Assembly (NCBI GenBank): GCA_023246715.1
Contig: JAHFHZ010000001.1
Span: forward strand, 48,571 to 112,570
Reading direction: 5' to 3'
Source: Candidatus Magasanikiibacteriota bacterium
GTDB lineage: Bacteria > Patescibacteriota > Patescibacteriia > Magasanikbacterales > GWA2-37-8
Length of the DNA stretch: 64,000 bases
Shown piece by piece: positions 3,803-56,753 of this stretch (position 1 is the first letter of the stretch; every line of letters begins with the position of its first letter). Under the pieces are notes generated by a model. It did no database searches. It was not told the origin of the DNA and saw nothing but the letters and a program-made list of their open reading frames with translations. The position numbers and the translations under genes were made by a program.

Positions 3803-3810
3803 CTGATGGT

Positions 3811-4824: not shown

Positions 4825-4829
4825 GGCGT

Positions 4830-7732: not shown

Positions 7733-7738
7733 CGCTGT

Positions 7739-8809: not shown

Positions 8810-8917
8810 ATCCGTCGACAGGTCTTTGATTTTTATTAGCGTTTACATAACATATTTATTCAGTGCTGGTCGGGCAGTGGCAAGACTCCTTCCGGCAGTT
8901 AGTCTAGTTTATATCGT

Positions 8918-10931: not shown

Positions 10932-10944
10932 TTCCTTATTCAGT

Positions 10945-12075: not shown

Positions 12076-12108
12076 TTGCCTGGTCGCGAAGCAGCTTAAC
12101 CCACCGAT

Positions 12109-13977: not shown

Positions 13978-13993
13978 TTTTTTAAGTTTACTT

Positions 13994-15988: not shown

Positions 15989-16005
15989 ATCTTAATTAAG
16001 GTATT

Positions 16006-23195: not shown

Positions 23196-24968
23196 ATGAA
23201 TACCTATACTTGGAAAATTTTTTTGTTTCGGAGCATTTCGTTTTTTCGCACCCACGCCTTTGGATTGCTATTAGCGGGAGCGGTTACGTTGGCGGTGAGC
23301 CTGCCTCCGGTTATTTGGCATTTTTCGACTGATTTCCGAGGCGTGGAGATGCTTAAAACTAACACCGAAGCGCACTATGTCGCTCAAGTACAGGAGGTAT
23401 ATGATGGCCACCCACGTTTGGGCAACACTTTTTTTCAAGGTCTAAAAAATTCTGATTACTTGTTTCCGCCACTATCTCCAAATTTGGTTGCTTTATTTGG
23501 CAAGCTTATTGGGGTAGGGGCAGTCGGCGCGGTTATTGTAGGGCGTTTTTTGTTTGTATTTTTGTTGGCTTTGGCAATTTACGGTTTCGCGTATCGTCTG
23601 TTTGGCAGCACTCGTTGGGCGGCGGTGGCAGCCCCGTTCATTATTTTGGGCTATGCGTTGTTTGATCCACACACGCTCTTGCGTTTATTTTCTTTTGGCC
23701 AAGGGGCTGGCGAGGCTACCTTCATTGATTATGGTCGGCCCATTAACCCCCAAATTAGTTCATTATTCTTTTTTGGGTATCTATATTTTTTCTGGCAGTT
23801 TTTGATTGTTCCATCTCGCCGTACCTTGTTGGGAGTGGTTTCGGCCGTATTGCTGGGCGCTAGTTTTTACGTGTACTTATTTACCTGGACTTATTTATTT
23901 ACCCTCAATGGTTTTTTATTTTTATTATTTTTACTGCGTAAAGATTTTGAGAGTGTTAAACGAGTTGTGGCGGTTACTATTGCGGCCGCGGTACTTGGCA
24001 TACCGTACGCATTTAATTTGTTGGCGGCTAGCCAGAATACCTGGTATGCCGAAACGGCAGTACGTTTTGGGTTTGTGGCTTCCCACGCGCCCAATATTAG
24101 CCGGTTGGTGCTTGGTTTAATAGTCGTTTATTTATTTGCGAAGTCTTTGCTCACCACGAAACAGCGTGTTTTTTTTGGGTCATTTTTTGTAACAGCGTTG
24201 GTGGTGGCCAATGAACAAATTATAACCGGTAAATATATTTTTAATCATCACTATCACTGGTATTACACCACACCGCTCGTGGCCCTAGGCGTACTCGCGT
24301 TTTTTGCTCAATGGTTTAAGGCCCATCCCGACAAAAAGCGGGTTGAAGTTTTGGCGGTAGCGCTGTTGGTTGCATTATTTTTTGTACAGGGAATCAAGGT
24401 GCAGGTTTTGTCGTATCAAGCATCCAAGGAATCAATGGTTGATGAGCAGCGTTACGCCCCAGTGATTGATTGGTTTAACCATGAAAGCCCCCTAGACAGC
24501 GTGATTTTTGCCCCCGCCCCGTTGCTACGTTTGCTTCCCGCGGTTACGCATAATAATGTGTACTATTACGGCACTGGTATCTACACTCTTGTTTCAAATG
24601 AACGGCTCATGGATACTTATTTGGCGCAGATCTATTTACAGCGTGTGCCACAAGTGGATATCCGTCTGTATCTAGACGAGCATCAGGCAGAAATTGCGGG
24701 GTGGGTGTTTGGGTACACTTTCAGTTTTCAGCCCGGAGTATGCAGCACCTGCGTGCCAGAGGATTTTTTGGATAAGGCCGCCGAACGTTACCGACAGCTT
24801 ACTGACGCCAATTTTGCATCGTTTTTACTTAAATACCCTTTGGATTATATCGTGACCGATGAAAAAACCGACCCGGGTTGGAGAGTGGATCGGTTTGGTT
24901 TCGTTCCGGTTGCTAAATTCGGCACGCTGACTATTCATTCGGCCGCGGCTCTTCTTGCCGGGCCATAA
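23196..24968 (+). CDS. Large polytopic membrane protein (590 aa). Possibly GT-C, or an O-antigen polymerase/ligase-like protein.
   Basis: Many TM helices and a C-terminal soluble domain. No diagnostic motif recognised. Confidence 0.35.
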   Translation: MNTYTWKIFLFRSISFFRTHAFGLLLAGAVTLAVSLPPVIWHFSTDFRGVEMLKTNTEAHYVAQVQEVYDGHPRLGNTFFQGLKNSDYLFPPLSPNLVALFGKLIGVGAVGAVIVGRFLFVFLLALAIYGFAYRLFGSTRWAAVAAPFIILGYALFDPHTLLRLFSFGQGAGEATFIDYGRPINPQISSLFFFGYLYFFWQFLIVPSRRTLLGVVSAVLLGASFYVYLFTWTYLFTLNGFLFLLFLLRKDFESVKRVVAVTIAAAVLGIPYAFNLLAASQNTWYAETAVRFGFVASHAPNISRLVLGLIVVYLFAKSLLTTKQRVFFGSFFVTALVVANEQIITGKYIFNHHYHWYYTTPLVALGVLAFFAQWFKAHPDKKRVEVLAVALLVALFFVQGIKVQVLSYQASKESMVDEQRYAPVIDWFNHESPLDSVIFAPAPLLRLLPAVTHNNVYYYGTGIYTLVSNERLMDTYLAQIYLQRVPQVDIRLYLDEHQAEIAGWVFGYTFSFQPGVCSTCVPEDFLDKAAERYRQLTDANFASFLLKYPLDYIVTDEKTDPGWRVDRFGFVPVAKFGTLTIHSAAALLAGP

Positions 24969-32326: not shown

Positions 32327-33173
32327 TTTTTTAGAAGCAATATTTTATTTAAAACAGCCTGTCGAGGCGAAAGTATACTACCAGCCTATGCCCGAAGCGC
32401 CCGTACAACCCAAGCAGAATGACTGGAATTTTCAATGGGAGAATTTTTACGATGATTCTTTGTTTTTGTTTAAGGAATGGATTTTTCCGCATACTTTGGA
32501 AACCTTCCGGGGAAAGAGCGTGGTTGATTGCGGGTGCGGCGGAGGGCAACATATTAATTTTGTCGCCCCCTTTGCCCGTCGAATTATTGGCATTGACTTG
32601 AACACCACCGCAATCGCCCGTGAACACACCGAACAGCACAGCATTGTTTCGTTTGTGGAAGGGGATTTGGCCAGCGTGAGCCTGCCCGAACAGCATGACG
32701 TGGTTTATTGCATTGGCGTTTTACAACATACCACCAACCCGGACGCCACGTTCGCGAATATAAAAAAAATGGTCGCGTCGGGGGGGCGTTTAATGATCTG
32801 GTGTTATTCCAAAGAGGGTAACTGGCCTAATTGGCTTATTTTGGAACCCTTGAAACGTTGCTTTATCCTTAAATTACCTAAACGAGCATTACTGTATTTG
32901 GCTACGGCGCTGACCGCGCTTTTGTACCCTGTTATTTATACGCTGTATTTATTGCCGCTCAGGTTTTTGCCTTATTACGAATATTTTGGTAACTGGCGTA
33001 AATTATCGTTTGGACGGAATCGATTAAATGTCTTTGACAAACTGAACGCGCCCATCACTAATTTTATTACGCGAGTTCAAGTAGAACGTTGGTTTAATCA
33101 GGCTGAATTTTCGGATATCTTTATTGATCAGTATAAAGGAGTGAGTTGGCGTGCTTCGGGTGTTAAATTGTAA
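32292..33173 (+). CDS. Class I SAM-dependent methyltransferase (alternative start at 32388)
   Basis: VVDCGCGGGQH motif I. Ends in ...LMIWCY. Confidence 0.6.
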   Translation: MPRITARYLENNFLEAIFYLKQPVEAKVYYQPMPEAPVQPKQNDWNFQWENFYDDSLFLFKEWIFPHTLETFRGKSVVDCGCGGGQHINFVAPFARRIIGIDLNTTAIAREHTEQHSIVSFVEGDLASVSLPEQHDVVYCIGVLQHTTNPDATFANIKKMVASGGRLMIWCYSKEGNWPNWLILEPLKRCFILKLPKRALLYLATALTALLYPVIYTLYLLPLRFLPYYEYFGNWRKLSFGRNRLNVFDKLNAPITNFITRVQVERWFNQAEFSDIFIDQYKGVSWRASGVKL

Positions 33174-33177
33174 AAAT

Positions 33178-34629
33178 ATGCTTGCGGCATTTCGGAATTT
33201 CTATCAAGCCCAGCGCGTGCCAATTATTTTGTTCGTGACGGCATTTGTTTTTCACGCGGCCATGTCGGCTTATTTATACTATCGTTTTGGCGATTCGGTT
33301 TTATGGTTTCAAAATGAAGACGCGCAAGGGTACGTGGAATTGGCGCGTAACGTGCTTACCGGGCGAGGTTTTACCCATGACGGCGCTGCGCTCGCGATTC
33401 GTACCCCGGCGTGGCCGTTGATGCTATCTTTAGGTTTGCTTTTGCCCGGCTCCGCAACAGCAGCAATTTTATTTTTGCAGGTTGTATTGCTGGGGGCTTC
33501 GGGTATTATAATTTATAAAATAGGTGAGTTATTTTTTTCAAAATTTGCCGGGTTAATCGCCTCGACACTCTATATTGTTGAACCTTACTTAGCGATGAAT
33601 ACGGCTTTGGCAACCACTGAAGTTTTTTTTAATTTTGGTTTATTGATAACGGTGTATTGTTTTGGACGTTGGTATCTTCGGCGCGACTCCCAGGCTTGGC
33701 TGGCTGCTTCGGGGCTTTGGCTGGGACTTTGTATTCTTATTCGGCCAGTGGCCTTGTATCTGCCGTTTTTATTTTTGATTTTTATCATCATTCGCCTCCT
33801 GTATTTTAAAAAGAGCACTCTGTCATTACTGGTTAGTTTGTTTATCCTAAGCGCCACTACCACATTGGTGGTGGCGCCATGGTCGATTCGCCAGTATATC
33901 CGTTTTGGTACTCCGCGCATTACCAATATTGACGCGATGTTATTATACTTTCGGGTGGCGCCGCTGGTTATCGGCGCTGAACAAGGCATTAGCTATAACG
34001 CGGCGATTCAGCAGTTGCACGGCGAATTGGAGCGTTCGGTTGAGCTTTATAATCCTGATGATTTAAATGCTAATTTTGTTCATTATGAATTCATGAGCGC
34101 AAGAGTGGCGGAATTGGTTCGTCAACGCCCAGATGTGGTAGCAAAAAGTTATTTGGCTTCAATGGTACCGGCCCTGTTTGGTACGGGTTACGAATATATG
34201 TTGGAAGAAGTGCTTGGTTTAGAGCGCGCCACGCAACGCCCCAGCTACTCCGCGCTGTTAGCTCGGGGAGATTTCGCTGCTTATTTTAGGGCTCTTCGCC
34301 AAATCGATATTTTTCAAGCTGTTTTATTAACTGGCGCGCTGTTGTGGATGGCTGCTTACGTATTTATTGTTTATTACGTAACCCGCAGGTTTGTTTGGAG
34401 AGAACGTTTTTTGAGTTTAGTGCTGCTCGGAGGCCTGCTTGGTTATTTTGTTTTTTTTGCGTTGGGCCCTGCCAGCCACGCCCGTTATCGCTTACCTACA
34501 TTTCCGTGGTGGTTTCTACTTATTGGCGCCAGCCTTGATTTTATTAAGCAAAAGCGTATACTAGGCTCACGCAAAGAGGCTGCTTCTTTTGGCCTTAATA
34601 AGCCTTTTATCCCCGGCCAGACCCCTTAA
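33178..34629 (+). CDS. Polytopic GT-C membrane glycosyltransferase (ArnT/PMT-like)
   Basis: Loop-1 motif ...DAQGYVELARNVLTGRGF and about 12 TM helices. Immediately followed by a DPM1-like GT2. Confidence 0.6.
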   Translation: MLAAFRNFYQAQRVPIILFVTAFVFHAAMSAYLYYRFGDSVLWFQNEDAQGYVELARNVLTGRGFTHDGAALAIRTPAWPLMLSLGLLLPGSATAAILFLQVVLLGASGIIIYKIGELFFSKFAGLIASTLYIVEPYLAMNTALATTEVFFNFGLLITVYCFGRWYLRRDSQAWLAASGLWLGLCILIRPVALYLPFLFLIFIIIRLLYFKKSTLSLLVSLFILSATTTLVVAPWSIRQYIRFGTPRITNIDAMLLYFRVAPLVIGAEQGISYNAAIQQLHGELERSVELYNPDDLNANFVHYEFMSARVAELVRQRPDVVAKSYLASMVPALFGTGYEYMLEEVLGLERATQRPSYSALLARGDFAAYFRALRQIDIFQAVLLTGALLWMAAYVFIVYYVTRRFVWRERFLSLVLLGGLLGYFVFFALGPASHARYRLPTFPWWFLLIGASLDFIKQKRILGSRKEAASFGLNKPFIPGQTP

Positions 34630-34634: not shown

Positions 34635-35486
34635 ATGCAAAAAATTTCAGTTATTCTGCCTGCTTACAATGAAGAATTGGGGATTGCTAAAGTTCTTTCT
34701 CGGCTTAAGGAAGTTTTGGCTAACGCCCCAGATTCGGAAATACTGGTTGTTAATGATGGGTCAACAGACGCCACGGCCAGCATTGCCATGGCCCATGGAG
34801 CGCGGGTAATTTCTAATCCAACCAACATGGGTTATGGATTTTCGTTGAAGCGTGGTTTTGTGGCCGCGGTTAACGAATGCGTGGTGATTACCGATGCGGA
34901 TGGCACGTATCCAATTGAGCGTTTGCCGGATTTAGTCGCTGAATTTGATAAGGGCTTGGATTTGGTGGTGGGCGCGCGCCAGGGTGCCAATTATTGGTCT
35001 AGTTGGACCAAGGGTTTTGCTCGTTTGTGCTTTAAATGGATGAGTCAATTTGTCGTGGGCAAGCGGATTCCCGATATTAATTCGGGTTTTAGAGTCATCC
35101 GCCGCAGCAAAATTGTGCCGGTTTTGAACGATCTTTCTAACGCTTTTTCATTTACCACCTCAATGACCTTGATTTTTTTCTTGAAGCATTATTTCATCCG
35201 TTATTTGCCAATTAGTTACGAACAAAGACAAGGTCGGTCTAAAGTGCACTACTTCCGCGATACATTAATCACCTTGCAGATTCTGGCCGATATTATCGCT
35301 CGCTATAACCCAATAAAATTATTTTTATTGCTGGCGTTGTTTCCTTTCGCGCTGATGTTGGTTTGTTTGGTTTTCGCGTTGGTTTGGGGGGTGTGGCTCT
35401 GGTTGCCACTGGCCTTTTTGGCCGGCTTTGGCGCGTTGTTGATTGTCGCGCTTGGTTTTATTGCCACAATTTTTAGACGCAATTAG
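34635..35486 (+). CDS. GT2 polyprenyl-phosphate glycosyltransferase (DPM1/GtrB-like) with C-terminal TM helices
   Basis: MQKISVILPAYNEELGI, VNDGSTDAT, ITDADGTYP. Two C-terminal TM helices as in GtrB. Confidence 0.75.
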   Translation: MQKISVILPAYNEELGIAKVLSRLKEVLANAPDSEILVVNDGSTDATASIAMAHGARVISNPTNMGYGFSLKRGFVAAVNECVVITDADGTYPIERLPDLVAEFDKGLDLVVGARQGANYWSSWTKGFARLCFKWMSQFVVGKRIPDINSGFRVIRRSKIVPVLNDLSNAFSFTTSMTLIFFLKHYFIRYLPISYEQRQGRSKVHYFRDTLITLQILADIIARYNPIKLFLLLALFPFALMLVCLVFALVWGVWLWLPLAFLAGFGALLIVALGFIATIFRRN

Positions 35487-35488
35487 GT

Positions 35489-35866
35489 ATGGCTGGTTCG
35501 AAGGCGCGAGCGCAGCTTGGGGTGGGAGTTGATATCGAAGAAGTTACCCGATTTACAAAACGCTCTTCCCGGGCGTTTAAATTATTTTTAAAACGTTTGT
35601 TTACTGATCAAGAATTGACCTACTGTTTCGAGCGAACTCGGACAGCGGAGCATTTAGCGGCCCGTTTCGCCGCCAAAGAAGCAATTATTAAAGCGCTGGC
35701 AATACTTGGTTTTGCCCCTCCTGATTATCAGCAGATTGAAATTAGGATGAATGGAAAGTTGCCGACGGTTTGCCTGTATGATAGTTCTTTAAAGCCGTAT
35801 CGTGTTTTAATCAGTTTGTCACATACTCGTACCTTGGCTATGGCTTTTGCAGTAATTACTGCCTAA
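35489..35866 (+). CDS. acpS: Holo-ACP synthase (4'-phosphopantetheinyl transferase)
   Basis: GVGVDIEEVTRF...FAAKEAIIKAL, 125 aa. Confidence 0.75.
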   Translation: MAGSKARAQLGVGVDIEEVTRFTKRSSRAFKLFLKRLFTDQELTYCFERTRTAEHLAARFAAKEAIIKALAILGFAPPDYQQIEIRMNGKLPTVCLYDSSLKPYRVLISLSHTRTLAMAFAVITA

Positions 35867-35870
35867 TCAT

Positions 35871-37682
35871 ATGGAAGAAATTATTCGACATGTTGAAATT
35901 AACAACCCTCAAAGCATTACTGATTATCGGCGATTGGCCCGAGAGCTGGTGGCTAACTTTGAATCATCTTGGCAGGGTGCTGTGGAATTGCGTTTAGCAG
36001 TGCTCGCGAGTTTTACCTTAAAAGGTTTGGCCGATATTTTGTTTGTGGAATGCGCTCGGCAAGGTATTAAAACTGAGGTATACCTGGGGGAATACAATCA
36101 GTACGCGCAAGAAATTTTGAATCCAACGAGCGGTTTGCATAGCTTTAAACCCTCGGCCGTGGTGCTATTTATAGATACTCAAGCGCTTTTGGGTGAAGCG
36201 TATTTCCGCCCCTACGGGAGTTTGCAGGCCGCCGACCGGCGTCTGCTTATTGATGAAAAACTTGCCGAAACGCAGCAGTACGTTCAAATACTTCGTGAAC
36301 GAACGGGCGCGGTGGTGATCGTGCATAACGCCGAGGTTCCGGGCTACTCGCCGCTGGGTATTTTGGAAGCCAAACAAGAGTTTGGAATTGTTGAAGCCGT
36401 TGAATCTTTTAACCGCCGTCTGAATGAGTTTTACAAATCAGTCAGTGATGTTTTCGTATTTGATTATAATGCCTGGTGCTCGCGGTGGGGAAAAAGCAAG
36501 CTCGTTGATTATCCTTTGTATTATTTAGGAGATTTTCGTCTCGGATTAGAGCATTTGGCAGAATTGGCCCGGGCTTATTTACATTTTATCAAACCGCTCG
36601 CGGCAAAAATTAAAAAGTGTATCGTGCTAGATCTGGACAATACGCTCTGGGGAGGGGTAGTTGGAGAAGATGGGGTGGAAGCTCTCCGGCTTGGCCCAAC
36701 CCCGGAAGGGCGGCCATTTTGGGAATTTCAAAAATATCTTTTAGCCCTTTTGGAGCGAGGAGTGATTCTGGCCATTAACAGTAAAAATAATCTCGAGGAT
36801 GCCCTGCGCGTTTTGCGCGAGCATCCGCATATGATCTTGCGCGAACAACATTTTGCCGCTCTGGCAATCAATTGGAACGACAAAGCCACTAATTTAAAAC
36901 AACTCGCCGAAGAACTCAATATCGGCTTAGATAGTCTGGTATTCATCGATGATGACGCGGCCAATCGAGCGCTTGTTCGGGAATCTTTGCCCCAGGTAGA
37001 AGTCGTGGAGCTCCCGAAAGATCCTAGCCGATACGCGTCGACCCTCAAGGATTTGAATTCTTTTCAGACCCTTAGTTTTACTACTGAAGACGCCGTTAAA
37101 GGAAAAATTTACGCTGCCGAGCGAGAACGCCGTGAATTTCAGAATGTTGCCAGCGACTTAAGCGGATTTTTACGCGGCCTCGGCATGGCTGTAACGGCGC
37201 GAGCGGCCGACGCCTTTTCTTTACCGCGTCTGGCGCAATTGACGCAAAAGACCAATCAGTTTAATCTAACCACGCGCCGCTATCGCGAAGAGCAGTTGGC
37301 TGAATTGGCCAATCGGCCAGATCGTTTGGTGCTTGGTGTTGAAGTAAAAGATCGTTTTGGTGATAACGGGTTGGTGGGAGTGGCGATAGTCGAGAAAACT
37401 CCTCAAGTTTGGAATATTGATACGTTTTTGTTGAGTTGTCGCGTAATTGGGCGGGGAGTGGAGCAAGCGTTGGTGGGTCTGCTAATCAACCGTGCCCGTG
37501 AAGCCGGTGTTGAGTTTTTAACGGGTGAGTTCATTGCCACTAGCAAAAATGCTCCGGCCAAAGATTTTTATGCCTTGAACGGTTTTAAATTGCAGTGGCA
37601 GCGAGATGGCGTGGAGAGCTGGCAATATGCGATCGAGCAGCCTTTTATAATTCCGGATTATCTTACTCTGGTAGAAAATTAA
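35871..37682 (+). CDS. HAD-IIIC/FkbH-like domain protein with a C-terminal GNAT-like fold (ACP-loading enzyme candidate)
   Basis: LDLDNTLWGGVVGEDGVE HAD motif I, FIDD motif. The C-terminus has a GNAT-like segment (VIGRGVEQALV). Confidence 0.65.
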   Translation: MEEIIRHVEINNPQSITDYRRLARELVANFESSWQGAVELRLAVLASFTLKGLADILFVECARQGIKTEVYLGEYNQYAQEILNPTSGLHSFKPSAVVLFIDTQALLGEAYFRPYGSLQAADRRLLIDEKLAETQQYVQILRERTGAVVIVHNAEVPGYSPLGILEAKQEFGIVEAVESFNRRLNEFYKSVSDVFVFDYNAWCSRWGKSKLVDYPLYYLGDFRLGLEHLAELARAYLHFIKPLAAKIKKCIVLDLDNTLWGGVVGEDGVEALRLGPTPEGRPFWEFQKYLLALLERGVILAINSKNNLEDALRVLREHPHMILREQHFAALAINWNDKATNLKQLAEELNIGLDSLVFIDDDAANRALVRESLPQVEVVELPKDPSRYASTLKDLNSFQTLSFTTEDAVKGKIYAAERERREFQNVASDLSGFLRGLGMAVTARAADAFSLPRLAQLTQKTNQFNLTTRRYREEQLAELANRPDRLVLGVEVKDRFGDNGLVGVAIVEKTPQVWNIDTFLLSCRVIGRGVEQALVGLLINRAREAGVEFLTGEFIATSKNAPAKDFYALNGFKLQWQRDGVESWQYAIEQPFIIPDYLTLVEN

Positions 37683-37689
37683 TTGCAGT

Positions 37690-37923
37690 ATGGAAAAATT
37701 ATATTCGCTAGTAGCTAAGGTGTTAGACATTGAAGCGCTTACAATTACCCCTGAAACTTCACCGGATACTGTGGAAAATTGGGATTCATTTAACGGTTTA
37801 ATGCTGGTTTCCGAGTTAGAGAATGTTTTTGGCGTTAAATTTACCATGGATGAAATTGTGGCAGTTAAAAAGGTGGGTGATATTACCGAGGCGTTGAAGC
37901 GCCACGGCGTTGAGTTGGAATAA
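37690..37923 (+). CDS. Acyl/peptidyl carrier protein
   Basis: 77 aa. The ENWDSFNGLMLVSELE segment carries the DS phosphopantetheine-attachment serine. Confidence 0.7.
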   Translation: MEKLYSLVAKVLDIEALTITPETSPDTVENWDSFNGLMLVSELENVFGVKFTMDEIVAVKKVGDITEALKRHGVELE

Positions 37924-37925
37924 GT

Positions 37926-38327
37926 ATGCGTTTTCAGGATATCGTTATCGGGAGTGTGTGTCAATTTGAACGCCAAATCAATGTGGATGACGGGCTTTCT
38001 TTTGCCAAGCTCACCGGTGATACCAACCCCTTACATACCAGCGCTGAATTTGCTGAACAGTCGCCTTTTGGGCGAACAATCGTGCACGGCTTGTTGATTG
38101 GTGGTTTGTTTTCTACTTTAGTTGGTGTGCACTGCCCGGGTGATAATTGTTTATATGTCAGCCAGACTTTACAGTTTAAAGCGCCCGTTTTTTATGGAGA
38201 CGTGGTAGTAATTCGCGGCATCGTGACCGATAAGCATGACAGTATTAGCATGGTCCGAATGAAGACAGAAGCCTTGGTGAATGGGGAAGTCAAAGTAACT
38301 GGCGAGGCGGTGGTAAAAGTGCTTTAA
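37926..38327 (+). CDS. MaoC-like (R)-specific hotdog-fold dehydratase
   Basis: FAKLTGDTNPLHTSAEFA...IVHGLL. Confidence 0.7.
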   Translation: MRFQDIVIGSVCQFERQINVDDGLSFAKLTGDTNPLHTSAEFAEQSPFGRTIVHGLLIGGLFSTLVGVHCPGDNCLYVSQTLQFKAPVFYGDVVVIRGIVTDKHDSISMVRMKTEALVNGEVKVTGEAVVKVL

Positions 38328-38339
38328 TTTTTTGAATAT

Positions 38340-39074
38340 ATGTCTGAACAAAAAACAGTGGTGGTAATCGGAGGTAGCGGCGGGATTGGTCGGGCGATCG
38401 TAGACGTTTTGATGAAAGACGAGTTTATCGTTCACGCGACTTTTTTTAGCCAAGACGAGCTTCTACATAAAGCGAGCGGGGCAGATAGATTGTTCTGGCA
38501 TAAATTAGACGCGACGGAGGCGGTGGCAGTTGCGGACTTGTGGAAGGTTATTTTGAAAACTTCGCCGACTATTAATGGGGTTGTTTTTGTCGCAACGCTG
38601 CCTACCGCATATCATCCCTTAATGAAACTGGATTGGAAAGATTTTACCGCGCATTTTAATGTTCAGGTCGGAACCTTTTTTCATACTCTGGCGGCTTTGC
38701 GCGAAAATTTGTCGGCAATCGGACCATGTCAGTTTATTCCGATTTTGACTGAGTACTGCCAAGGTCGACCCCCGGCTGGTTTAAGCGATTATGTTGCCGC
38801 TAAGATGGCTCTACAGGGTTTTGCTCGCACTATGGTGGCAGAGTTGGCCAAGTACGGTTGCCGGGTAAATATGATTTCGCCGGGGATTACGCTTACTGAA
38901 TTAACCAGTTCGCTGCCACCTAAATTTTTAGAAATTGCCGCTGAACAGAATCCGCTCAAGCGACTAGCGCAGAGCACAGACGTGGCGGCCGTGGTGAAAT
39001 TTTTATTATCTGAACAAGCGGCATACTTGAATGGCGTCAATATTCCGGTGAATGGTGGGTCGACAGTACAATAA
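38340..39074 (+). CDS. SDR family oxidoreductase (3-oxoacyl-ACP reductase-like)
   Basis: VVVIGGSGGIGRAI, YVAAKMALQG (YxxxK). Confidence 0.7.
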   Translation: MSEQKTVVVIGGSGGIGRAIVDVLMKDEFIVHATFFSQDELLHKASGADRLFWHKLDATEAVAVADLWKVILKTSPTINGVVFVATLPTAYHPLMKLDWKDFTAHFNVQVGTFFHTLAALRENLSAIGPCQFIPILTEYCQGRPPAGLSDYVAAKMALQGFARTMVAELAKYGCRVNMISPGITLTELTSSLPPKFLEIAAEQNPLKRLAQSTDVAAVVKFLLSEQAAYLNGVNIPVNGGSTVQ

Positions 39075-39100
39075 CTCATTTTGTCACGGGCTTATTTGTT

Positions 39101-40579
39101 ATGCTTTTTAATTCACTTCAATTTTTGATTTTTTTCCCGGTTGTGACCGTGCTGTATTTTGCATTACAGCATCGATTTCGCTGGATTTTATTATTATTGT
39201 CGAGCTGCTATTTTTACATGGCGTTTGTTCCCAAGTATATCTTGATCCTGTTTGCGGTTATTTTGATTGATTACTTCATGGGGTTGGCGATCGCGCGGGA
39301 ATCTAATCTGCAGAGAAAAAAGGCCTTTCTATTGATCAGCATTGTGGCCAACATAGGCATTTTGTTTGTTTTTAAATATTTTAATTTTTTTAACGCCAAC
39401 TTTACTGCCCTGGCCGAAATGATTGGCTGGAATTATCCCATCAAACATTTAGCGCTTATTTTGCCCATTGGCTTGTCTTTCCATACTTTTCAGAGCCTGA
39501 GCTATATCATTGAAGTGTACCGCGGCAATTACCCGGCCGAGCGCCGTTTAGGCATTTATGGCCTGTACGTCTTATTTTTTCCGCAACTAGTGGCCGGCCC
39601 GATTGAGCGTCCACAGCATATTTTGCCCCAGCTGCATATTGAACAACGGTTTGATTTTACGCGTGTTGCTTCTGGGTTGCGCCTCATGCTGTGGGGTTTG
39701 TTCAAGAAAATTGTCATCGCCGATAATTTAGCGGTGGTTGTATCCCAGGTGTATGATTATCCGTCACAGTTTGCGGGAGCCCATTTTATCGTAGCTACCG
39801 TCGCTTTTTCCATTCAGCTTTTTTGTGATTTTTCGGGGTACTCGGATATTGCCATCGGCAGCGCGCGTGTTCTGGGTATTCGTTTAATGCAGAATTTTAA
39901 CCGACCATATAGCGCGCCATCAATTACGGAATTTTGGAAGCGCTGGCATATTTCACTTACCAGCTGGTTTCGTGATTATGTCTATTTGCCGCTCGCGCGT
40001 TTCAAAGTAACTCCAATTTGGCTATATGCCGCGACGATTATTGTTTTTACCCTGAGTGGTTTATGGCATGGCGCTAACTGGACTTTTGTTGTTTGGGGGC
40101 TCTACCACGGAATCTATATGACTGTTTCTTTGGCTACGCGGAGGATTAGGGCGCGGATAGTTAAACTACTTCATCTTAATGCTTGGCCCCGATTACACCG
40201 AGCAATTCGAGTAGCCACAACTTTTTCGTTGGTCAGTATCTCGTTCATTTTTTTTCGAGCAACATCATTGTCCGATGCGTGGTATATGGTATCTCATTTG
40301 AGCGAAGGGTTAATGGCAACCTTTGGCTCATTGTTCAACCCGCTTAATCTTTCGGGTTTTATTGAATCCCTTGGCATTAGTCCTTTTACTTTTTTACAAG
40401 TACTGATTGCCGTGGCGCTGCTTACGACCGTTTATACTTTGAAAGCCAAGACAACAGCGTTTTTACGTTTTGATGCTGCTCCACCCTGGGTGCGTTGGAG
40501 TGTTTATAACGCGTTGATTATGTGGATTATATTTTTTGGTTACTTTGGCGAGCAACCGTTTATTTATTTTCAGTTCTAG
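39101..40579 (+). CDS. MBOAT-family membrane-bound O-acyltransferase (DltB/AlgI/PatA-like)
   Basis: 492 aa, polytopic, with the invariant-His region FWKRWHISLTSWFRDYVYLPL. Confidence 0.8.
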   Translation: MLFNSLQFLIFFPVVTVLYFALQHRFRWILLLLSSCYFYMAFVPKYILILFAVILIDYFMGLAIARESNLQRKKAFLLISIVANIGILFVFKYFNFFNANFTALAEMIGWNYPIKHLALILPIGLSFHTFQSLSYIIEVYRGNYPAERRLGIYGLYVLFFPQLVAGPIERPQHILPQLHIEQRFDFTRVASGLRLMLWGLFKKIVIADNLAVVVSQVYDYPSQFAGAHFIVATVAFSIQLFCDFSGYSDIAIGSARVLGIRLMQNFNRPYSAPSITEFWKRWHISLTSWFRDYVYLPLARFKVTPIWLYAATIIVFTLSGLWHGANWTFVVWGLYHGIYMTVSLATRRIRARIVKLLHLNAWPRLHRAIRVATTFSLVSISFIFFRATSLSDAWYMVSHLSEGLMATFGSLFNPLNLSGFIESLGISPFTFLQVLIAVALLTTVYTLKAKTTAFLRFDAAPPWVRWSVYNALIMWIIFFGYFGEQPFIYFQF

Positions 40580-40581
40580 CT

Positions 40582-41784
40582 ATGCCCAGCTGGAAAACAA
40601 TCCGTAGCGCGGTTGGCCAACTATGGCTGGTTTTTTTGGCCGGACTTTTATGTTTAGGGGTGGTAGAGGGGGCGCTCCGGCTTAAGAGTCGATGGGGGGA
40701 ACAGCGTGGTTACCGGGTAACCCAGCCAAATGGTTTGGTCACGCTTGAGCCAGCTTTGGATACCCTTATTCGCGGCAGTACCGGCGAGTTGATTCATTTT
40801 AAAACTAATCACGAAGGGTTCGCGAGCGAAAATCACGCGGTGGTGGCTGCCACGGGCACTAAACGAATTGCTTTTTTAGGTAATTCTTTTACTCAGGGAA
40901 CAGATGTTGATTACGAGAAAAAAATGACGACGCTTATTCAGCGTTTATATCCCAAAACCAGTGACGGCCAAAAAGTTGAAATAATGAATTTTGCCATTGG
41001 CGGCTATAGCATCGTTGAACAAATGGTGCTTTACAATGAATATGTACGCAAATATCGCCCAGCGGCCGTGATTCTAGTATCTTATGTGGGCTATGATTTT
41101 TCAACTAACCTTCGTTTTTTACCTGAACAAAAAATCATCCTGGAAGGCGATATTCAGGCCCTCACGGCTGCAACGGTGAAACAAGCCACGGATGCTTTTA
41201 CCAAACAACAGCAAACACTCAAGAATCGACTGGTCGCGACATTCGAGGTGGTGCGGTTTTTGATCCGACTGACTCAGGAAAACCAAACGCTTAACACGGC
41301 CGCGGTTAACCTCGGGTTGCTTAAGCAACCATTTAGCGAGCAGGCTGCGAACTATTTGACTGACATTTGGGCTTATTTTAATCCTAATTCCGCGCCACAC
41401 CGCGAAGTAATGGAATTTACGGCCGCGACGATTAAGCGTTTGCAAAGCCAGATAACCAGAGACGGGGCTTCTTTTGGTCTGGTGCTTATTCCAAGTTATT
41501 GGCAGGTTAACGAAAAATATATTGCACAGCTTAAGGCAAAGCACATCCCTTTGCAGCTCGACTTGCCGAACACTACCCTTAAAAAACAACTCAATAACGC
41601 ATTGCCAATTTTAGATTTATCCACGCCGATTTATCGAGCATTGAACACGGAGCGTACCCCCATTTTTATTAAAGATATAGGCCATTTCACCGAGCAGGGC
41701 AATAGCTTGGCAGCGGAACAAATCGTTGAATTTTTGAAAGCCAATGAGTTTCAATTGCGGCTGAAACGCCCGGGCAAAAATTGA
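40582..41784 (+). CDS. DltD/AlgJ/AlgX-like SGNH-fold protein (extracytoplasmic acyl-transfer partner of MBOAT)
   Basis: N-terminal TM anchor; IAFLGNSFTQGTDV (GDS-like block). Confidence 0.45.
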   Translation: MPSWKTIRSAVGQLWLVFLAGLLCLGVVEGALRLKSRWGEQRGYRVTQPNGLVTLEPALDTLIRGSTGELIHFKTNHEGFASENHAVVAATGTKRIAFLGNSFTQGTDVDYEKKMTTLIQRLYPKTSDGQKVEIMNFAIGGYSIVEQMVLYNEYVRKYRPAAVILVSYVGYDFSTNLRFLPEQKIILEGDIQALTAATVKQATDAFTKQQQTLKNRLVATFEVVRFLIRLTQENQTLNTAAVNLGLLKQPFSEQAANYLTDIWAYFNPNSAPHREVMEFTAATIKRLQSQITRDGASFGLVLIPSYWQVNEKYIAQLKAKHIPLQLDLPNTTLKKQLNNALPILDLSTPIYRALNTERTPIFIKDIGHFTEQGNSLAAEQIVEFLKANEFQLRLKRPGKN

Positions 41785-41833
41785 CTTTCTGCCTTGTGAC
41801 AGGTATATATCAGTACACAGCTAAACTATTTTT

Positions 41834-43360
41834 ATGAAAGCCTGCATTTTTCTGCAAGGACAATATAGCAAACTCGGCCATGCTCTAGCGCGGGTTTTAA
41901 AAGAACAGCATGGCGTGACGGAATTTTGCGCCTATGTCTATTCATTGGGGGCTGCGGAATTCGTTCGCCAGGGCCAGTCGGACATTGCTTATAATCCGAT
42001 TTTAGTTGACCATGAGCTCCACGAACGTTTTCGGGCTGAGCAGATTGATTTACAATTCCTTGAACGTTTCGAGCATGAGTATGGCACGCCGCATTTATGG
42101 AAGTATTTATATGCGGATCGAAAATTGCTTATGTCAATTGGGCCTAAGGAAGAAACAACCGCCGTAATTGATCCGTTGTATGAACACGATGATTTACTGC
42201 GTATTTTTCAGAGTCGCGCGCGAGCGATTGAAGAAATGTTGCTTAAAGAACGACCAGATTTTGTTTTTTTCTTTGCTATTGGTGCAATTGGCAACATGCT
42301 GGTATATCATGTGGCTAAAAAATTAGGTATTCGTATTTTTACGATTGATTTTCCGCGGATCGGGAATTGGATTTCACTTTCTTCGGATTACAATACGCTC
42401 ACGGGGATTGAAGAGGGATTCAAATCTATCCGCGCTGGCCGTGATAACGAGCCAGTCCGGCAGAACGTGCGAAAATTCCTGACGGAGTTTCGCGCCACCG
42501 GTAATTTGAATTTAGAATATATTAAAATTGCCCAGCAGCTTAACCCGATGAAAGCGCCGTCATTTTTACATCCTAAACGGTTGCTCCGCACCTTTAAATA
42601 CTTGATCACCCTCACCAGAAATTGGTTAAAGAATCGCCAGCTGTTTGTGTATGGTGAAACCCATCTGAACCCTTTGCGTTTTGTTTGGTATAACAGCATT
42701 CGTAAATTCCGCCGTGCCCGAGGATTGGATGACTTGTATACGCAGCCGGTAGCTGGCGAAGAATATGCTTTTTTCCCGTTGCATTATGAGCCGGAGCTAT
42801 CAATTTTAGTGCTTTCGCCATTTTATTTTGATCAGCTTAACCTGATTCGGATAATTGCCCGGTCGTTGCCGGTACACATGAAGCTGTATGTGAAGGAACA
42901 CCCCTCGATGATTTTCCGTCGTTCGCGTAAGTATTACAAAGACTTGCTCAAAATTCCAAATGTTCGCCTGGTGCCGCACACTATTAAAAGTTTTGAGTTA
43001 ATTAAAAATTCTAAGTTGGTAACGGTAATTTCGAGTAGTGCTGGATGGGAGGCGTGTTTGCTTAAGAAGCCGCTCATTAGTTTTGGCGAAGTCTTCTATA
43101 ACGCTTTGCCCTTTGTGCGGCGTTCACGTACGCCGGATGATTTGCCAGAGTTAATTAAGGATCGTTTGGAGCATTTTGATTACGATGAGAAGACGTTGGA
43201 AGATTTTTTGGTCGCCACGTTTGAGGAGTCTTTTCCGTTTGATTACGCTGGATTATGGTATCAGAATGACATTGCAGCTTTGATGAAAGACGCGGGGGTA
43301 CAGGCCATTGCTCAGCGCGTCATGAAGCGCGTGAAAAGTTTAAACAGCCAGGCGGCTTAA
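41834..43360 (+). CDS. KpsC/KpsS/TagF-like GT-B protein with an HP motif; candidate CMP-ulosonic acid transferase
   Basis: ...PVHMKLYVKEHPSM... (K..HP pattern); ...VISSSAGWEACLLKKPLISFGE. Confidence 0.35.
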   Translation: MKACIFLQGQYSKLGHALARVLKEQHGVTEFCAYVYSLGAAEFVRQGQSDIAYNPILVDHELHERFRAEQIDLQFLERFEHEYGTPHLWKYLYADRKLLMSIGPKEETTAVIDPLYEHDDLLRIFQSRARAIEEMLLKERPDFVFFFAIGAIGNMLVYHVAKKLGIRIFTIDFPRIGNWISLSSDYNTLTGIEEGFKSIRAGRDNEPVRQNVRKFLTEFRATGNLNLEYIKIAQQLNPMKAPSFLHPKRLLRTFKYLITLTRNWLKNRQLFVYGETHLNPLRFVWYNSIRKFRRARGLDDLYTQPVAGEEYAFFPLHYEPELSILVLSPFYFDQLNLIRIIARSLPVHMKLYVKEHPSMIFRRSRKYYKDLLKIPNVRLVPHTIKSFELIKNSKLVTVISSSAGWEACLLKKPLISFGEVFYNALPFVRRSRTPDDLPELIKDRLEHFDYDEKTLEDFLVATFEESFPFDYAGLWYQNDIAALMKDAGVQAIAQRVMKRVKSLNSQAA

Positions 43361-44286
43361 CGGCCCGCCAACGAGAATATAATCACTGTGCCACCGGTGC
43401 AAAGCGCGCCGAGCCAGTCCCGGCGGTAAAAATTTTTTCGTTCACCAAACACCAACAATCCGAGCACCACGCCACTCAATACGGTGAGCACGTCGTGCAC
43501 GGAGAGTACGATAACCCCAGGGCCAAGTGAAAGCGCCCAGTAGGTGAGGCCAAGTGTAGTAACGGTAGTGCAGCCGAGGATCGGCAAGATCAGATAAGTA
43601 GTTTTTCTCAGTGGGGAAGCGCCGATAACTTGCGGCGCTTTTTTATTTTGTTTGCTAAACCAGGCGCTGATTAGTCGTATAAGAACAGTCGCGGCAAAAG
43701 CCGCTGGGTACCAGGAGGCAAGAAAAATATCCGTGGGGATTGCTTTGAGAGAAAAAAATTTTAAAAGGAAGTTTACCACTCCCCAAATCACCACGGCGCT
43801 ACCAGCGTAGTATGCCCAGGCACCGTCCGCTTGCGCCTGCCCGGCAGGAGTTGTTTGGGGGCCGGAAGTGGCAAAACAGGTTAATGCCGCAAACGCCATT
43901 ATTATGCCGGCAATGCGGAGCATCCCATTGGCGGTAGTGGGATTAAGCAGGGACCATTCGCCCAGAAAAATTGCGATGAGGACTATGCCTAGGACGGCTA
44001 TTAGGGGGCGTGTTAACACGGAGCGCGTTAAATTGATCCGAATCGCTTTTAAAAAAAACCAAGCTCCTAGCGCATTTATCCCCGCCACGGAGGCTATTAG
44101 CAGTGAATTTTCCGAAAAAACCATTTCTTTCCGCACAGCCAGGTGATAGCCAACGGCGAGTATCGCGGCGGTGCCGAAGGCGCCGAGCGTGATTGAAACC
44201 GCAGGAAGACGGTTGGCAAGGTATTTTTGTATATACTGATGGGCGGCTTCTACCGTTATCAGTAGCCCAAGAGCTATCCAGAGCAT
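43357..44286 (-). CDS. DMT/EamA-like 10-TM transporter
   Basis: Two tandem 5-helix hydrophobic repeats. Only minus-strand gene in this block. Confidence 0.4.
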   Translation of the reverse strand: MLWIALGLLITVEAAHQYIQKYLANRLPAVSITLGAFGTAAILAVGYHLAVRKEMVFSENSLLIASVAGINALGAWFFLKAIRINLTRSVLTRPLIAVLGIVLIAIFLGEWSLLNPTTANGMLRIAGIIMAFAALTCFATSGPQTTPAGQAQADGAWAYYAGSAVVIWGVVNFLLKFFSLKAIPTDIFLASWYPAAFAATVLIRLISAWFSKQNKKAPQVIGASPLRKTTYLILPILGCTTVTTLGLTYWALSLGPGVIVLSVHDVLTVLSGVVLGLLVFGERKNFYRRDWLGALCTGGTVIIFSLAGR

Positions 44287-49506: not shown

Positions 49507-50040
49507 ATGCGGCTTAGTGATTTGCGCCCGATGATTCAAACTTCCCGGTTAGGTCTACGCAAATTGACCCTTGAAGACGCCAATGAGCGGTATGTTGGCT
49601 GGTTGAATGACCCTGAGGTAAACGTCTACTTGGAAACGCGAACCGCCACGGTACAGGGTATCCGCGATTATATTGATAAAAAATCAAGTAGCGATACAGC
49701 TTTGCTGCTTGGTATTTATTGGCAACAGAATGATGACTTTATTGGTACGGTGAAACTGGAACCGATTGATTTTGCCACTGGAGTGGCGACAATGGGTATT
49801 TTGATTGGCGATAAAGTTTATTGGGGCAAGGGGGTAGCTACCGAAGTGGTGAATGCTATTACTGAGTATGCTTTTAATAGCTTGGGCCTTTCTGAAGTGA
49901 ATTTAGGGGTACTCGGCGCGAACTTGCCAGCTATCCGGGTCTATGAAAAGTGTGGTTTTGCTACGTATCAAGTTGACAAAAATGCCCGACAACACGGCGA
50001 CGCCACGTACGATCAGGTGTGGATGCGGCGTAACAAATAA
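49507..50040 (+). CDS. GNAT-family N-acetyltransferase (PseH/RimL-like)
   Basis: 177 aa; ...GVATEVVNAITEYAFNSLGLSEVNLGVLGANLPAIRVYEKCGF. Confidence 0.6.
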   Translation: MRLSDLRPMIQTSRLGLRKLTLEDANERYVGWLNDPEVNVYLETRTATVQGIRDYIDKKSSSDTALLLGIYWQQNDDFIGTVKLEPIDFATGVATMGILIGDKVYWGKGVATEVVNAITEYAFNSLGLSEVNLGVLGANLPAIRVYEKCGFATYQVDKNARQHGDATYDQVWMRRNK

Positions 50041-51864: not shown

Positions 51865-53028
51865 ATGAATACCAGAATTGTCAGTGATTCCAAGGATCTA
51901 ATTCGCTGTTCGCGCTGCGTGATGCCCGAAACCCAGGAGCCGATTATGTTCGACGCCGAGGGGGTTTGTAATACCTGCCGGAATTTAGAAATAAAACAGC
52001 AAAAAATTGACTGGGACGCCCGACTGAAACAGTTTGAGGAAATCATTAATCAATACCGGGGCAAGTACCAGTACGATTGCATTGTCCCATTTAGCGGCGG
52101 CAAGGATTCCACCTATACCGTGTGGGCGCTGGTTAAAAAGTTCGGTTTGAAGCCGTTGGTGGTGCGGTACAACCACCATATGATTCGGCCGCAAACTTTG
52201 CGCAATCAGGAAATGACGATTAAACAGCTTAAGTTGGATTTTTTGGAATATCGCACTGATTGGGATTTGGTAAAAAAATTAATGCGCGTCAGCCTGGACC
52301 GCAAGGGTGATATTTACTGGTACCAACACACTGGCATTTTTTGTTTCCCGATGCACATGGCGATTAAGTTCAACGTACCATTGATTATTTGGGGCGAGCC
52401 CACGGCCGAGTACGCCGCGTATTACCGCTATGATGAAGAAGAAATCGGCGACGAGGAGCGCTTCAATTATTTTATCAATCTCGGAATTACCGCCCAAGAC
52501 ATGATCGGTTTTTTGAATGATCCGACCGTAAAATTAGCTGATCTTTGGGCCCATCAGTTCCCGGCCCGCAAAGATTTACAGGCGATTGAATGTCGCTCAA
52601 TTTGTTTGGGAACCTACACTCCGTGGGATGTAAAGGCGCAGGCCAAGATTATTCAAGACGAACTTGGTTGGAAAGGTGATATGGTAGAAGGGGTGCCACC
52701 GGAGTATAACTACGAAAAAATTGAAGACATGCTACAGGGCGTACAAGATTATCTTAAATATATCAAACGTGGCTATGGTCGCATGAGCCACCTGGCTTCG
52801 ATTGATATTAGGAATGGTCGATTGACCCGCGAAAAGGCAATGCAAATGGTGGAGCAATGGGAAGGCCGCCGCCCCGGGAGCCTTGATGCGTTATTAAAAT
52901 GGCTCAATTTGTCCGAAGTGGAATTTTATGAAATTGCCAATCGGCATCGAGTGAGCCCCTGGAAACACGATTCTTCCCAGACCAAACGCGGCGAATCGCT
53001 CCCAGATCAAAAGGATTGGGTGATTTAA
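51865..53028 (+). CDS. N-acetyl sugar amidotransferase (PP-loop ATPase; WbuX/PseA family)
   Basis: N-terminal Cys4 ribbon (CSRCVMPE...CNTC), PP-loop VPFSGGKDSTY. Confidence 0.8.
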   Translation: MNTRIVSDSKDLIRCSRCVMPETQEPIMFDAEGVCNTCRNLEIKQQKIDWDARLKQFEEIINQYRGKYQYDCIVPFSGGKDSTYTVWALVKKFGLKPLVVRYNHHMIRPQTLRNQEMTIKQLKLDFLEYRTDWDLVKKLMRVSLDRKGDIYWYQHTGIFCFPMHMAIKFNVPLIIWGEPTAEYAAYYRYDEEEIGDEERFNYFINLGITAQDMIGFLNDPTVKLADLWAHQFPARKDLQAIECRSICLGTYTPWDVKAQAKIIQDELGWKGDMVEGVPPEYNYEKIEDMLQGVQDYLKYIKRGYGRMSHLASIDIRNGRLTREKAMQMVEQWEGRRPGSLDALLKWLNLSEVEFYEIANRHRVSPWKHDSSQTKRGESLPDQKDWVI

Positions 53029-53035
53029 AACTCGT

Positions 53036-53659
53036 ATGATCGTAGTGGTTGACTACGGCATGGGAAATTTGGGTTCGATTGCGAAAGCCCTGGAGTATGT
53101 CGGGGGTGAAGTACTCGTAACCAACGACCCTGCCCGTGTGGCACAAGCCGATAAATTAGTGCTCCCCGGAATGGGCGCTTTTCAGGATGGCATGAAACAT
53201 CTGGAGGAGCGTGGTTTGGTGCCCCTGTTGACCGATTTGGTGTTGAACCAAAAAAAACCATTTTTGGGGATTTGTTTAGGCATGCAGCTTTTGGCTAAAC
53301 GCGGTTTTGAATGGGGCGAATACCCCGGTTTGGGTTGGATTGACGCCGAGGTGGTTCGATTTGAAGTTGATAAAATCAAGGGATTAAGCGTGCCCCACGT
53401 GGGATGGAATGATTTAACTTTGACGCGGAGCACGCCGTTATTTGCTGGCTTGGAGAATGGGGCGGATGTTTATTTCGTGCATAGCTATCATTTGGCGTGC
53501 CGTGAACCGAAGTTGGTGACTGCTACATTTGAATACGGCGATACTTTTACCGCCGCTTTAATGCAGGAGAATATTTTTGCCACGCAATTTCACCCAGAAA
53601 AAAGTCAACGTGATGGACTGACGATGCTCAAGAATTTTTTATCTTGGCAACCCCAGTGA
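53036..53659 (+). CDS. hisH: HisH-like class I glutamine amidotransferase (WbuY-like)
   Basis: MIVVVDYGMGNLGS, GICLGMQLL (catalytic Cys), HS...FHPEKS. Confidence 0.85.
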   Translation: MIVVVDYGMGNLGSIAKALEYVGGEVLVTNDPARVAQADKLVLPGMGAFQDGMKHLEERGLVPLLTDLVLNQKKPFLGICLGMQLLAKRGFEWGEYPGLGWIDAEVVRFEVDKIKGLSVPHVGWNDLTLTRSTPLFAGLENGADVYFVHSYHLACREPKLVTATFEYGDTFTAALMQENIFATQFHPEKSQRDGLTMLKNFLSWQPQ

Positions 53660-53660
53660 T

Positions 53661-56732: not shown

Positions 56733-56753
56733 TGGGTTAGTAAGCTGTCGGTT

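Follow-up and report, generated by a model that had tools for sequence, protein, structure and literature searches.

The stretch analysed here (64,000 nucleotides (nt) of contig JAHFHZ010000001.1 from a Candidatus Magasanikiibacteriota bacterium, hereafter the window) harbors a cassette of seven genes that probably encodes a carrier-protein-dependent system for the O-acylation of a surface glycan across the membrane. The genes, all on the + strand (35489-41784), code in order for a holo-acyl carrier protein synthase (AcpS), an FkbH-type loader, a stand-alone acyl carrier protein (ACP), a MaoC-type dehydratase, a short-chain dehydrogenase/reductase (SDR), a membrane-bound O-acyltransferase (MBOAT) and an SGNH-fold protein. 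The original prediction for this DNA, made from its letters alone, had listed the same seven co-directional and tightly spaced genes in this order, and profile matches and gaps of only 2–26 nt confirm it. It had also placed FkbH in the position of DltA, the adenylating enzyme of the D-alanylation (Dlt) system, feeding the MBOAT and the SGNH protein. This remains the best-supported reading, because all MBOATs of the clade concerned adjoin an FkbH–ACP module although the order of the genes varies, and because they are altered in the segment corresponding to the carrier-docking region of DltB; the coupling itself and the identity of the acyl group are predicted from sequence. The acyl group would most likely be lactyl, and its acceptor would be a glycan.

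The individual gaps within the block measure 4, 7, 2, 12, 26 and 2 nt, and AcpS lies 2 nt after the end of an upstream GT2 glycosyltransferase gene. A consensus scan gave no plausible intrinsic terminator inside the block, and its promoter-like and terminator-like matches were at chance level. No recognisable Shine–Dalgarno sequence was found in the 20 nt upstream of any cassette gene (35469-41833). The catalytic motifs are complete in all cassette proteins.

Genes for the proposed synthesis of the acyl group

The first gene (35489..35866, + strand) codes for an AcpS-type 4'-phosphopantetheinyl transferase of 125 amino acids (aa) that matches PF01648 (54 bits) and TIGR00556 (69 bits, cut-off 45) and carries the motifs DIE, KEAIIKA and SLSH. 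The equivalog models of housekeeping AcpS all stay below their cut-offs, which fits a paralogue dedicated to the carrier of the cassette. The second gene (35871..37682, + strand) encodes the 603-aa FkbH-type loader, whose identity was checked with TIGR01686 (313 bits, cut-off 147, spanning residues 247–575) and which also matches TIGR01681 and PF21211. It is composed of an FkbH_N domain, a HAD-IIIC phosphatase domain and a GNAT-like C-terminal transfer part that belongs to the FkbH domain itself, and its N-terminal half matches the structure of BF1531 from B. fragilis (PDB 3slr). The HAD motif DxDxT is present as D254-L-D256-N-T, together with S522-C523-R524, and D254, D256 and S522-C523-R524 are invariant across 20 homologues.

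The stand-alone ACP (77 aa, 37690..37923, + strand; PF00550, 29 bits) has its phosphopantetheine attachment site at Ser33, in W-D-S33-F, so that both the HAD aspartate of the loader and the carrier serine, whose absence would have spoken against the original prediction, are intact. Its matches in the PDB are ordinary ACPs, DltC not being among them, and its motif WDS33FNGLMLVSELE is common to the ACPs of all FkbH modules, whatever transferase comes next.

The following gene (37926..38327, + strand) encodes a 133-aa MaoC-type (R)-specific hydratase/dehydratase (PF01575, 69 bits) with a complete hydratase-2 motif including the catalytic Asp and His (FAKLTGDTNPLHTSAEFA, residues 26–43). Its nearest solved structures are the 3-hydroxyacyl-thioester dehydratase HTD2 (3ir3) and the (R)-specific enoyl-CoA hydratase 1iq6. 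The 244-aa protein encoded at 38340..39074 (+ strand) is a classical SDR resembling FabG ketoreductases (adh_short_C2, 109 bits), with GGSGGIG near the N-terminus and Y151-V-A-A-K155. Its best NCBIfam matches are FabG-type models at about 115 bits, all below their cut-offs, and it is therefore only generically FabG-like.

The MBOAT and its SGNH partner

The sixth gene (39101..40579, + strand) codes for a 492-aa MBOAT membrane acyltransferase, as confirmed by PF03062 (90 bits, cut-off 27). The start at 39101 is correct, since the N-terminus MLFNS is invariant across homologues, and the public gene call of 453 aa is too short. The protein resembles DltB without being a DltB orthologue. It reaches 167 bits against the DltB equivalog model TIGR04091 (cut-off 375) and 113 bits against DltB in the PDB, and its AlphaFold2 model (pLDDT 83.7) is nearest to DltB (TM-score 0.71), with HHAT and PORCN also matching. 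H283 and H323 are invariant in homologues and align with H289 and H336 of DltB. The nearest relatives by sequence are annotated as AlgI-like, and the segment 296–304 of the cassette protein reads LPLARFKVT where relatives that are not linked to an FkbH–ACP module have PLGGNR.

The last gene (40582..41784, + strand) encodes a membrane-anchored SGNH-fold protein of 400 aa, presumably the extracytoplasmic acyl acceptor and transferase. Its start is most likely ATG 40582 and not GTG 40522, which gives the 400-aa product recorded in databases. The protein is a true SGNH fold, with block I (G-N-S102) and D365-x-x-H368 in canonical order behind the membrane anchor, and its structural neighbours include PatB and the SGNH domains of OatA. 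The original prediction had called it DltD/AlgJ-like, and the fold stands, while membership of the DltD family (PF04914) is ruled out by both sequence and fold and that of the AlgJ family is supported by neither; the match to PF16822 (ALGX) lies below the Pfam cut-off. A word-indexed homologue search with this protein found only itself and the partner in locus L083, and an exhaustive HMMER search found more, the best new matches (P0243 and P0245) lying on contigs of 2–3 kb whose context is uninformative.

FkbH–ACP modules in other genomes

Relatives of the cassette FkbH that share about 50% identity number in the thousands, and we sampled 78 distinct loci from genomes. The pairing of FkbH with an adjoining ACP gene is nearly universal among them, MaoC is frequent, SDR is present in a subset, and an AcpS gene lies beside FkbH in roughly 35 loci. 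Many of the sampled modules consist of FkbH–ACP alone, and in more than 10 loci MaoC and SDR accompany FkbH–ACP as one block. The hosts comprise bacteria of the Candidate Phyla Radiation, Acidobacteria and Clostridia, as well as DPANN, Asgard and ammonia-oxidising archaea. In the related loci whose flanks were examined, and in most of the recurrent neighbour clusters, the surrounding genes are those of sugar biosynthesis or glycosyltransferases. Homologous modules thus lie in glycan loci and not beside lipid A or fatty-acid synthesis genes, a linkage that would have counted against a role in glycan modification.

The recurrent neighbours of the module are soluble acyltransferases, namely LbH (25 loci), Antibiotic_NAT (12 loci) and GNAT or FemAB-like proteins (about 15 loci), and also polysaccharide deacetylases. 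For example, L167 and L168, with FkbH proteins that rank among the nearest to that of the cassette (53–54% identity), have a GNAT gene immediately after AcpS–FkbH–ACP–MaoC–SDR. The position after SDR is held by an Antibiotic_NAT in L003, L006 and L015 and by a GNAT in L018; in the window, as in L083 and L084, the MBOAT and SGNH genes take this place. Because the transferase in this position varies among related loci, the AcpS–FkbH–ACP–MaoC–SDR core is a portable factory for acyl-ACP with an interchangeable transferase after it. By the same token, the MBOAT of the window is expected to consume the acyl-ACP, because its position is that of an acyltransferase in the relatives.

FkbH–ACP modules in sugar loci seem to be essentially undescribed. 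The FkbH literature is almost entirely concerned with natural products, and the sole case that we found in a glycan locus is cj1302, an FkbH-domain gene of the C. jejuni flagellar glycosylation locus (PMC7099621). In the literature searched, no biochemical characterisation of any such module with a soluble transferase was apparent.

Linkage of the MBOAT to the module

A neighbour-joining tree without bootstrap, built from a careful alignment, groups the MBOATs of the window, L084, L083, L169 and L121 in a single clade. All five adjoin an FkbH–ACP module; in L121 the order is ACP–MaoC–SDR–MBOAT–SGNH and the contig ends just upstream of ACP, leaving the ACP–MaoC–SDR end of the module. Within the clade, the genes come in two or more orders, and the SGNH partners belong to two unrelated families. 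In L169 the block MBOAT–AcpS–FkbH–ACP–MaoC–SGNH (8624-16778) has the module between the MBOAT and SGNH genes, like dltC between dltB and dltD, and is flanked by a Wzx-like flippase and a gene of the glycerophosphotransferase family (Glyphos_transf), so that the acceptor in this locus may be a teichoic-acid-like polymer. A tree based on a quick alignment had split L121 off, as if the module had been recruited independently within the bacterial clade, but the careful alignment, to which L169 was added, rejoined it. The linkage recurs independently in an archaeal locus, L034, in which the gene of a distant MBOAT (33% identity) immediately precedes FkbH. In L083, a second and different SGNH/ALGX-like protein (422 aa, 5073-6341) is encoded next to a carbamoyltransferase gene just upstream of the cassette.

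The linked MBOATs also share a change in sequence. The motif PLGG(N/S)(R/K), which we define after WHxSL…RDY as an empirical feature of the sampled relatives and not as a curated definition, is kept in 73 of 77 unlinked MBOATs and in none of the seven linked ones, and is also missing from DltB (Fisher p = 7e-8, a value that overstates the independent evidence since five of the seven come from one clade). The segment aligns with the region of DltB that docks its carrier, DltB binding DltC through helix HC, residues 302–317 (PMC11035591). In a forward test based on the motif, two further MBOATs lacking it were present among 120 database matches, and one of them, P0157, adjoins AcpS–FkbH–ACP–MaoC.

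An ACP profile run over 88 loci found no module-type ACP beside any other MBOAT except in L099. There, the ACP is accompanied by soluble GNAT and LbH transferases of its own and GGNR is retained in the MBOAT, which agrees with the motif rule from the opposite direction. The co-directional operon of this locus (2762-12537) encodes AMP-ligase–GNAT–ACP–LbH, a WbuX triad, a GFO oxidoreductase, another LbH, the GGNR MBOAT and its partner; here an MBOAT shares its operon with a carrier-protein module of another kind, whose loader is DltA-like.

Proposed mechanism

As judged from family membership, AcpS would convert the 77-aa ACP to its holo form. The HAD domain of FkbH would then dephosphorylate 1,3-bisphosphoglycerate, and the glyceryl group would be held on Cys523 before passing to the ACP, as expected from the chemistry of the family and from the residues present; loading of this type gives glyceryl-S-ACP according to PMC4552970 (citing Sun et al. 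2008) and PMC13122637. MaoC is predicted to remove the 3-hydroxyl of glyceryl-ACP, yielding the enol of pyruvoyl-ACP, and SDR would reduce pyruvoyl-ACP to lactyl-ACP. A combination of dehydratase, ketoreductase, FkbH and ACP has been proposed to supply a lactate starter in loading modules of trans-acyltransferase polyketide synthases, a point for which our literature searches returned nothing usable. Of the two C3 products that had been suggested for the cassette, lactyl is thus the expected one, by way of pyruvoyl, and 3-hydroxypropionyl is rejected as unlikely on chemical grounds, as a hydratase-2 enzyme, a 2,3-dehydratase of the MaoC type, strips the 3-hydroxyl and not the 2-hydroxyl.

The acyl-ACP would bind the MBOAT from the cytoplasmic side, in the way that DltC docks on DltB, and its acyl group would then cross the membrane by way of His323 and His283, two steps suggested by the gene linkage and the altered docking segment. 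Finally, Ser102 of the SGNH protein would take up the acyl group and transfer it, as an ester, to a hydroxyl of the glycan that the surrounding locus produces.

A broader proposal, which falls a little short of being probable, is that a second class of carrier-dependent bacterial and archaeal MBOATs exists beyond DltB. Marked by the loss of PLGG(N/S)(R/K), its members would export FkbH-derived C3 acyl groups from a dedicated ACP to extracytoplasmic glycans through fast-evolving SGNH partners, the group being lactyl where MaoC and SDR are both present and pyruvoyl or glyceroyl elsewhere.

Evidence against the relay and alternative explanations

Several observations weigh against a relay from ACP to MBOAT. 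The neighbourhood comparison that had been suggested as a check showed FkbH–ACP to be common in glycan loci and an MBOAT to lie near FkbH in only two of the 78 distinct loci, the other 76 lacking one and soluble N-acyltransferases being the usual neighbours. The module ACPs have no MBOAT-specific signature, all of them carrying WDS(F/Y)N(G/A)L(M/L)LVSELE, and the SGNH partner has no detectable kinship with DltD beyond the common fold. Five of the seven linked MBOATs without the motif belong to one clade, so that the association rests on about three independent lineages plus DltB. The forward test gave a negative outcome for the other MBOAT without the motif (P0231, locus L170), as no ACP gene lies within 10 kb of it. 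This protein is closely related to an ordinary MBOAT that bears the motif, and an 82-aa gene of carrier size in L170 was rejected as a carrier protein as it belongs to an ordinary SGNH partner of 326 aa. Further unlinked MBOATs lacking the motif are those of L108 and L154, which lie on short contigs, and of L145, which has no module in the 6.6 kb available upstream. An Antibiotic_NAT gene comes right after the SGNH gene in L083, and L034 also has an LbH transferase and a deacetylase; since these two loci have soluble transferases of their own, the MBOAT is not needed there to explain the module. Finally, the modules of L169 and L034 have MaoC but lack an SDR, which means that lactyl cannot be the exported group in every case; other C3 groups are likely in these two loci.

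Some of these observations would be accounted for if two independent systems shared the operon, one performing soluble N-acylation from acyl-ACP and the other O-acetylation of the AlgI/PatA type from acetyl-CoA, a reading that we consider unlikely. It agrees with the prevalence of soluble N-acyltransferases beside FkbH–ACP, with the Antibiotic_NAT retained after the MBOAT pair in L083 and the LbH retained in L034, and with the sister lineages of the cassette MBOAT, which lack a nearby ACP; indeed, most close relatives of this MBOAT (41–58% identity) have neither FkbH nor ACP nearby and are paired with other families of SGNH-like partners. The window itself carries a pseudaminic acid (Pse)-type pathway including a PseH-like GNAT (177 aa, 49507..50040, + strand; Acetyltransf_3, 93 bits; TIGR03585, 51 bits, cut-off 93), which would acylate the 4-amino group that ends up as N7 in pseudaminic acid. 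A precedent for such a product is N-glyceroyl pseudaminic acid (Pse5Am7Gra) in Tannerella, whose genetic basis was unknown in 2017 (PMC5378307). This GNAT, which also counts against the relay, is the sole candidate for a soluble acyltransferase in the window, where no Antibiotic_NAT, LbH (hexapeptide-repeat), FemAB-like or c9-type transferase and no orthologue of the GNATs of L167 and L168 were found. However, it lies 8 kb downstream of the cassette, inside a nonulosonic-acid sub-cluster, is only 23–29% identical to the c21 GNATs that adjoin other FkbH modules, and shows no similarity with the GNATs directly following SDR in L167 and L168. Moreover, two separate systems would leave unexplained the linkage of the whole MBOAT clade to the module in varied orders, the embedded order of L169, the loss of PLGGNR at the DltC-docking segment in the linked MBOATs, and the presence of a distant archaeal MBOAT beside FkbH.

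It is also conceivable, though rather improbable, that the same relay carries another acyl group (glyceroyl, pyruvoyl or another short hydroxy-acyl), possibly to a lipid-linked or teichoic-acid-like polymer, MaoC and SDR then acting on a substrate other than glyceryl-ACP or in a different order. The MBOAT-linked modules of L169 and L034, having MaoC without SDR, the many bare FkbH–ACP modules, the Glyphos_transf gene adjoining L169 and the merely generic likeness of the SDR to FabG all point in this direction. Lactyl remains the preferred cargo for the window, where the complete hydratase-2 motif and the short-chain relatives of MaoC fit the dehydration of a 3-hydroxyacyl thioester such as glyceryl-ACP, and where MaoC and SDR belong to the block that moves with FkbH–ACP in more than 10 loci. 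Lastly, FkbH, ACP, a dehydratase and a ketoreductase are classic parts of polyketide and fatty-acid synthesis, and FkbH is known nearly only from natural products, but a polyketide, lipid or fatty-acid pathway is very improbable here as no ketosynthase, acyltransferase domain, thioesterase or condensation enzyme was found within the 64-kb window and the related loci that were examined are flanked by sugar-biosynthesis or glycosyltransferase genes.

Genomic setting

The entire 64-kb window is a single glycan locus. Nearly all of its genes lie on the + strand, the GC skew is positive throughout, and no tRNA genes were found in it. It harbors many GT1 and GT2 glycosyltransferases, a Wzx-like flippase and five GT-C membrane transferases of the PMT_2 family (6041-7732, 9603-10931, 14648-15988 on the opposite strand, 21747-23189 and 33151-34629), four of which are adjoined by a GT2 gene. 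The GT-C/GT2 pairs point to repeated extracytoplasmic glycosylation from polyprenyl-phosphate sugars.

Besides the PseH-like GNAT, the Pse-type pathway comprises PseB (above its equivalog cut-off), a PseC-like aminotransferase, two NeuB-type synthases (starting at 54429 and 60883, the second within 60883-61968) and a cytidylyltransferase. Two complete acetamidino triads, each composed of a WbuX amidotransferase, HisH and HisF, are located at 51865–54416 and 55491–58188, and together with the two NeuB genes suggest either that the pathway is duplicated or that two nonulosonic acids with different modifications are made. The locus also encodes a carbamoyltransferase, a PIG-L deacetylase and a formyltransferase-like protein. 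Directly downstream of the cassette and outside its core lies a gene (41834..43360, + strand) for a 508-aa putative glycosyltransferase of the Capsule_synth/BFO_1060-like type (PF05159, 35 bits; weak match to NF046086 BFO_1060). Its orthologue (554 bits) adjoins the cassette in L084 (10749-12275, opposite strand), and the protein could be a nonulosonic acid transferase.

A 768-aa fusion of a metallo-beta-lactamase, a rhodanese and a class-V aminotransferase resembling cysteine desulfurases is encoded at 58198-60504, and two open reading frames have no match in Pfam or NCBIfam, one of 590 aa (23196-24968) and one coding for a multi-pass membrane protein of 309 aa on the opposite strand (43357-44286).

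Implications

To our knowledge, no system other than Dlt has been established in which an MBOAT receives its cargo for export from a carrier protein. If the proposed relay is correct, the cassette would be the second one known after bacterial D-alanylation, with an unrelated loader, and ACP to MBOAT to SGNH would be a general route for decorating surface polymers with non-acetyl groups. The presence or loss of PLGGNR could then mark the type of donor (CoA- or carrier-dependent) used by bacterial MBOATs, a question long unsettled. The cassette would also bring a new glycan substituent, lactyl or a related C3 ester, to lineages known almost only from metagenomes, and O-lactyl esters on a glycan containing nonulosonic acids would be, as far as we know, an undescribed modification. 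Moreover, FkbH–ACP modules are a candidate source of the N-glyceroyl groups found on nonulosonic acids, as in Pse5Am7Gra of Tannerella, the origin of which was termed a major challenge by its authors (PMC5378307).

Comparison with known systems

The cassette works like Dlt without being a Dlt system, as it has no DltA, no DltX, no protein of the DltD family and no DltB orthologue. As in DltABCD(X), a small carrier modified by an AcpS-type enzyme would deliver an acyl-type cargo to an MBOAT, and the neighbouring genes include one for a membrane-anchored SGNH-fold protein. The cassette MBOAT shares both histidines with DltB, which is its closest solved structure (TM-score 0.71), and like DltB it lacks PLGGNR. 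In contrast to Dlt, the loader is FkbH; no AMP-binding Pfam match was found in the annotated open reading frames of the window, nor any AMP-binding signature in those longer than 300 aa, which leaves no DltA-type ligase there. Similarly, no C-terminal FLYFGF-type motif of the DltX peptide was found in any reading frame of the window, and a dltX gene would not fit into the intergenic gaps at the cassette, which measure 2–49 nt. The proposed cargo is a C3 unit derived from glycolysis instead of D-alanine and would be tailored on the carrier by two enzymes, the carrier resembles ordinary ACPs, the partner is not of the DltD family, and the MBOAT is phylogenetically AlgI-like. The context also differs, being a nonulosonic-acid glycan locus known from metagenome assemblies only.

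The systems AlgI–AlgJ/AlgX(–AlgF), PatA–PatB and WssH likewise combine an MBOAT with an extracytoplasmic SGNH-fold transferase that esterifies a secreted or surface glycan (PMC9558356). However, they have no dedicated carrier or acyl-building enzymes, both of which are present in the cassette, and their cargo is acetyl, with acetyl-CoA generally taken as the donor. The unlinked AlgI-like relatives keep PLGG(N/S)(R/K), whereas the cassette MBOAT has lost it. The studied bacterial MBOAT systems covered in a review are only AlgI, PatA, WssH and DltB (PMC9558356), and we found no literature coupling FkbH to an MBOAT, the two papers that name both dealing with unrelated steps of cyanobacterial peptide biosynthesis. 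The claim that the combination is uncharacterised as a glycan-modification system therefore appears to hold for FkbH with an MBOAT, although an FkbH gene among glycan genes was already known from cj1302.

With the FkbH–ACP loading systems of polyketide and non-ribosomal pathways (methoxymalonyl-ACP, tetronates, glycerate starters), the cassette shares the FkbH architecture, the catalytic residues and the cognate ACP that comes next. It differs from them in that its proteins are stand-alone and that the proposed consumer is a transferase acting on a glycan, with no synthase. The FkbH–ACP glycan modules with soluble transferases have the same AcpS–FkbH–ACP(–MaoC–SDR) core, the identical ACP motif and an amino-sugar or nonulosonic-acid setting. 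In those modules, the cytoplasmic GNAT, LbH or Antibiotic_NAT, often together with a sugar de-N-acetylase, implies N-acylation of a nucleotide sugar, whereas the MBOAT and SGNH genes that occupy the same position in the window imply O-acylation outside the cytoplasm. The MBOAT version is a rare variant of a widespread FkbH–ACP module.

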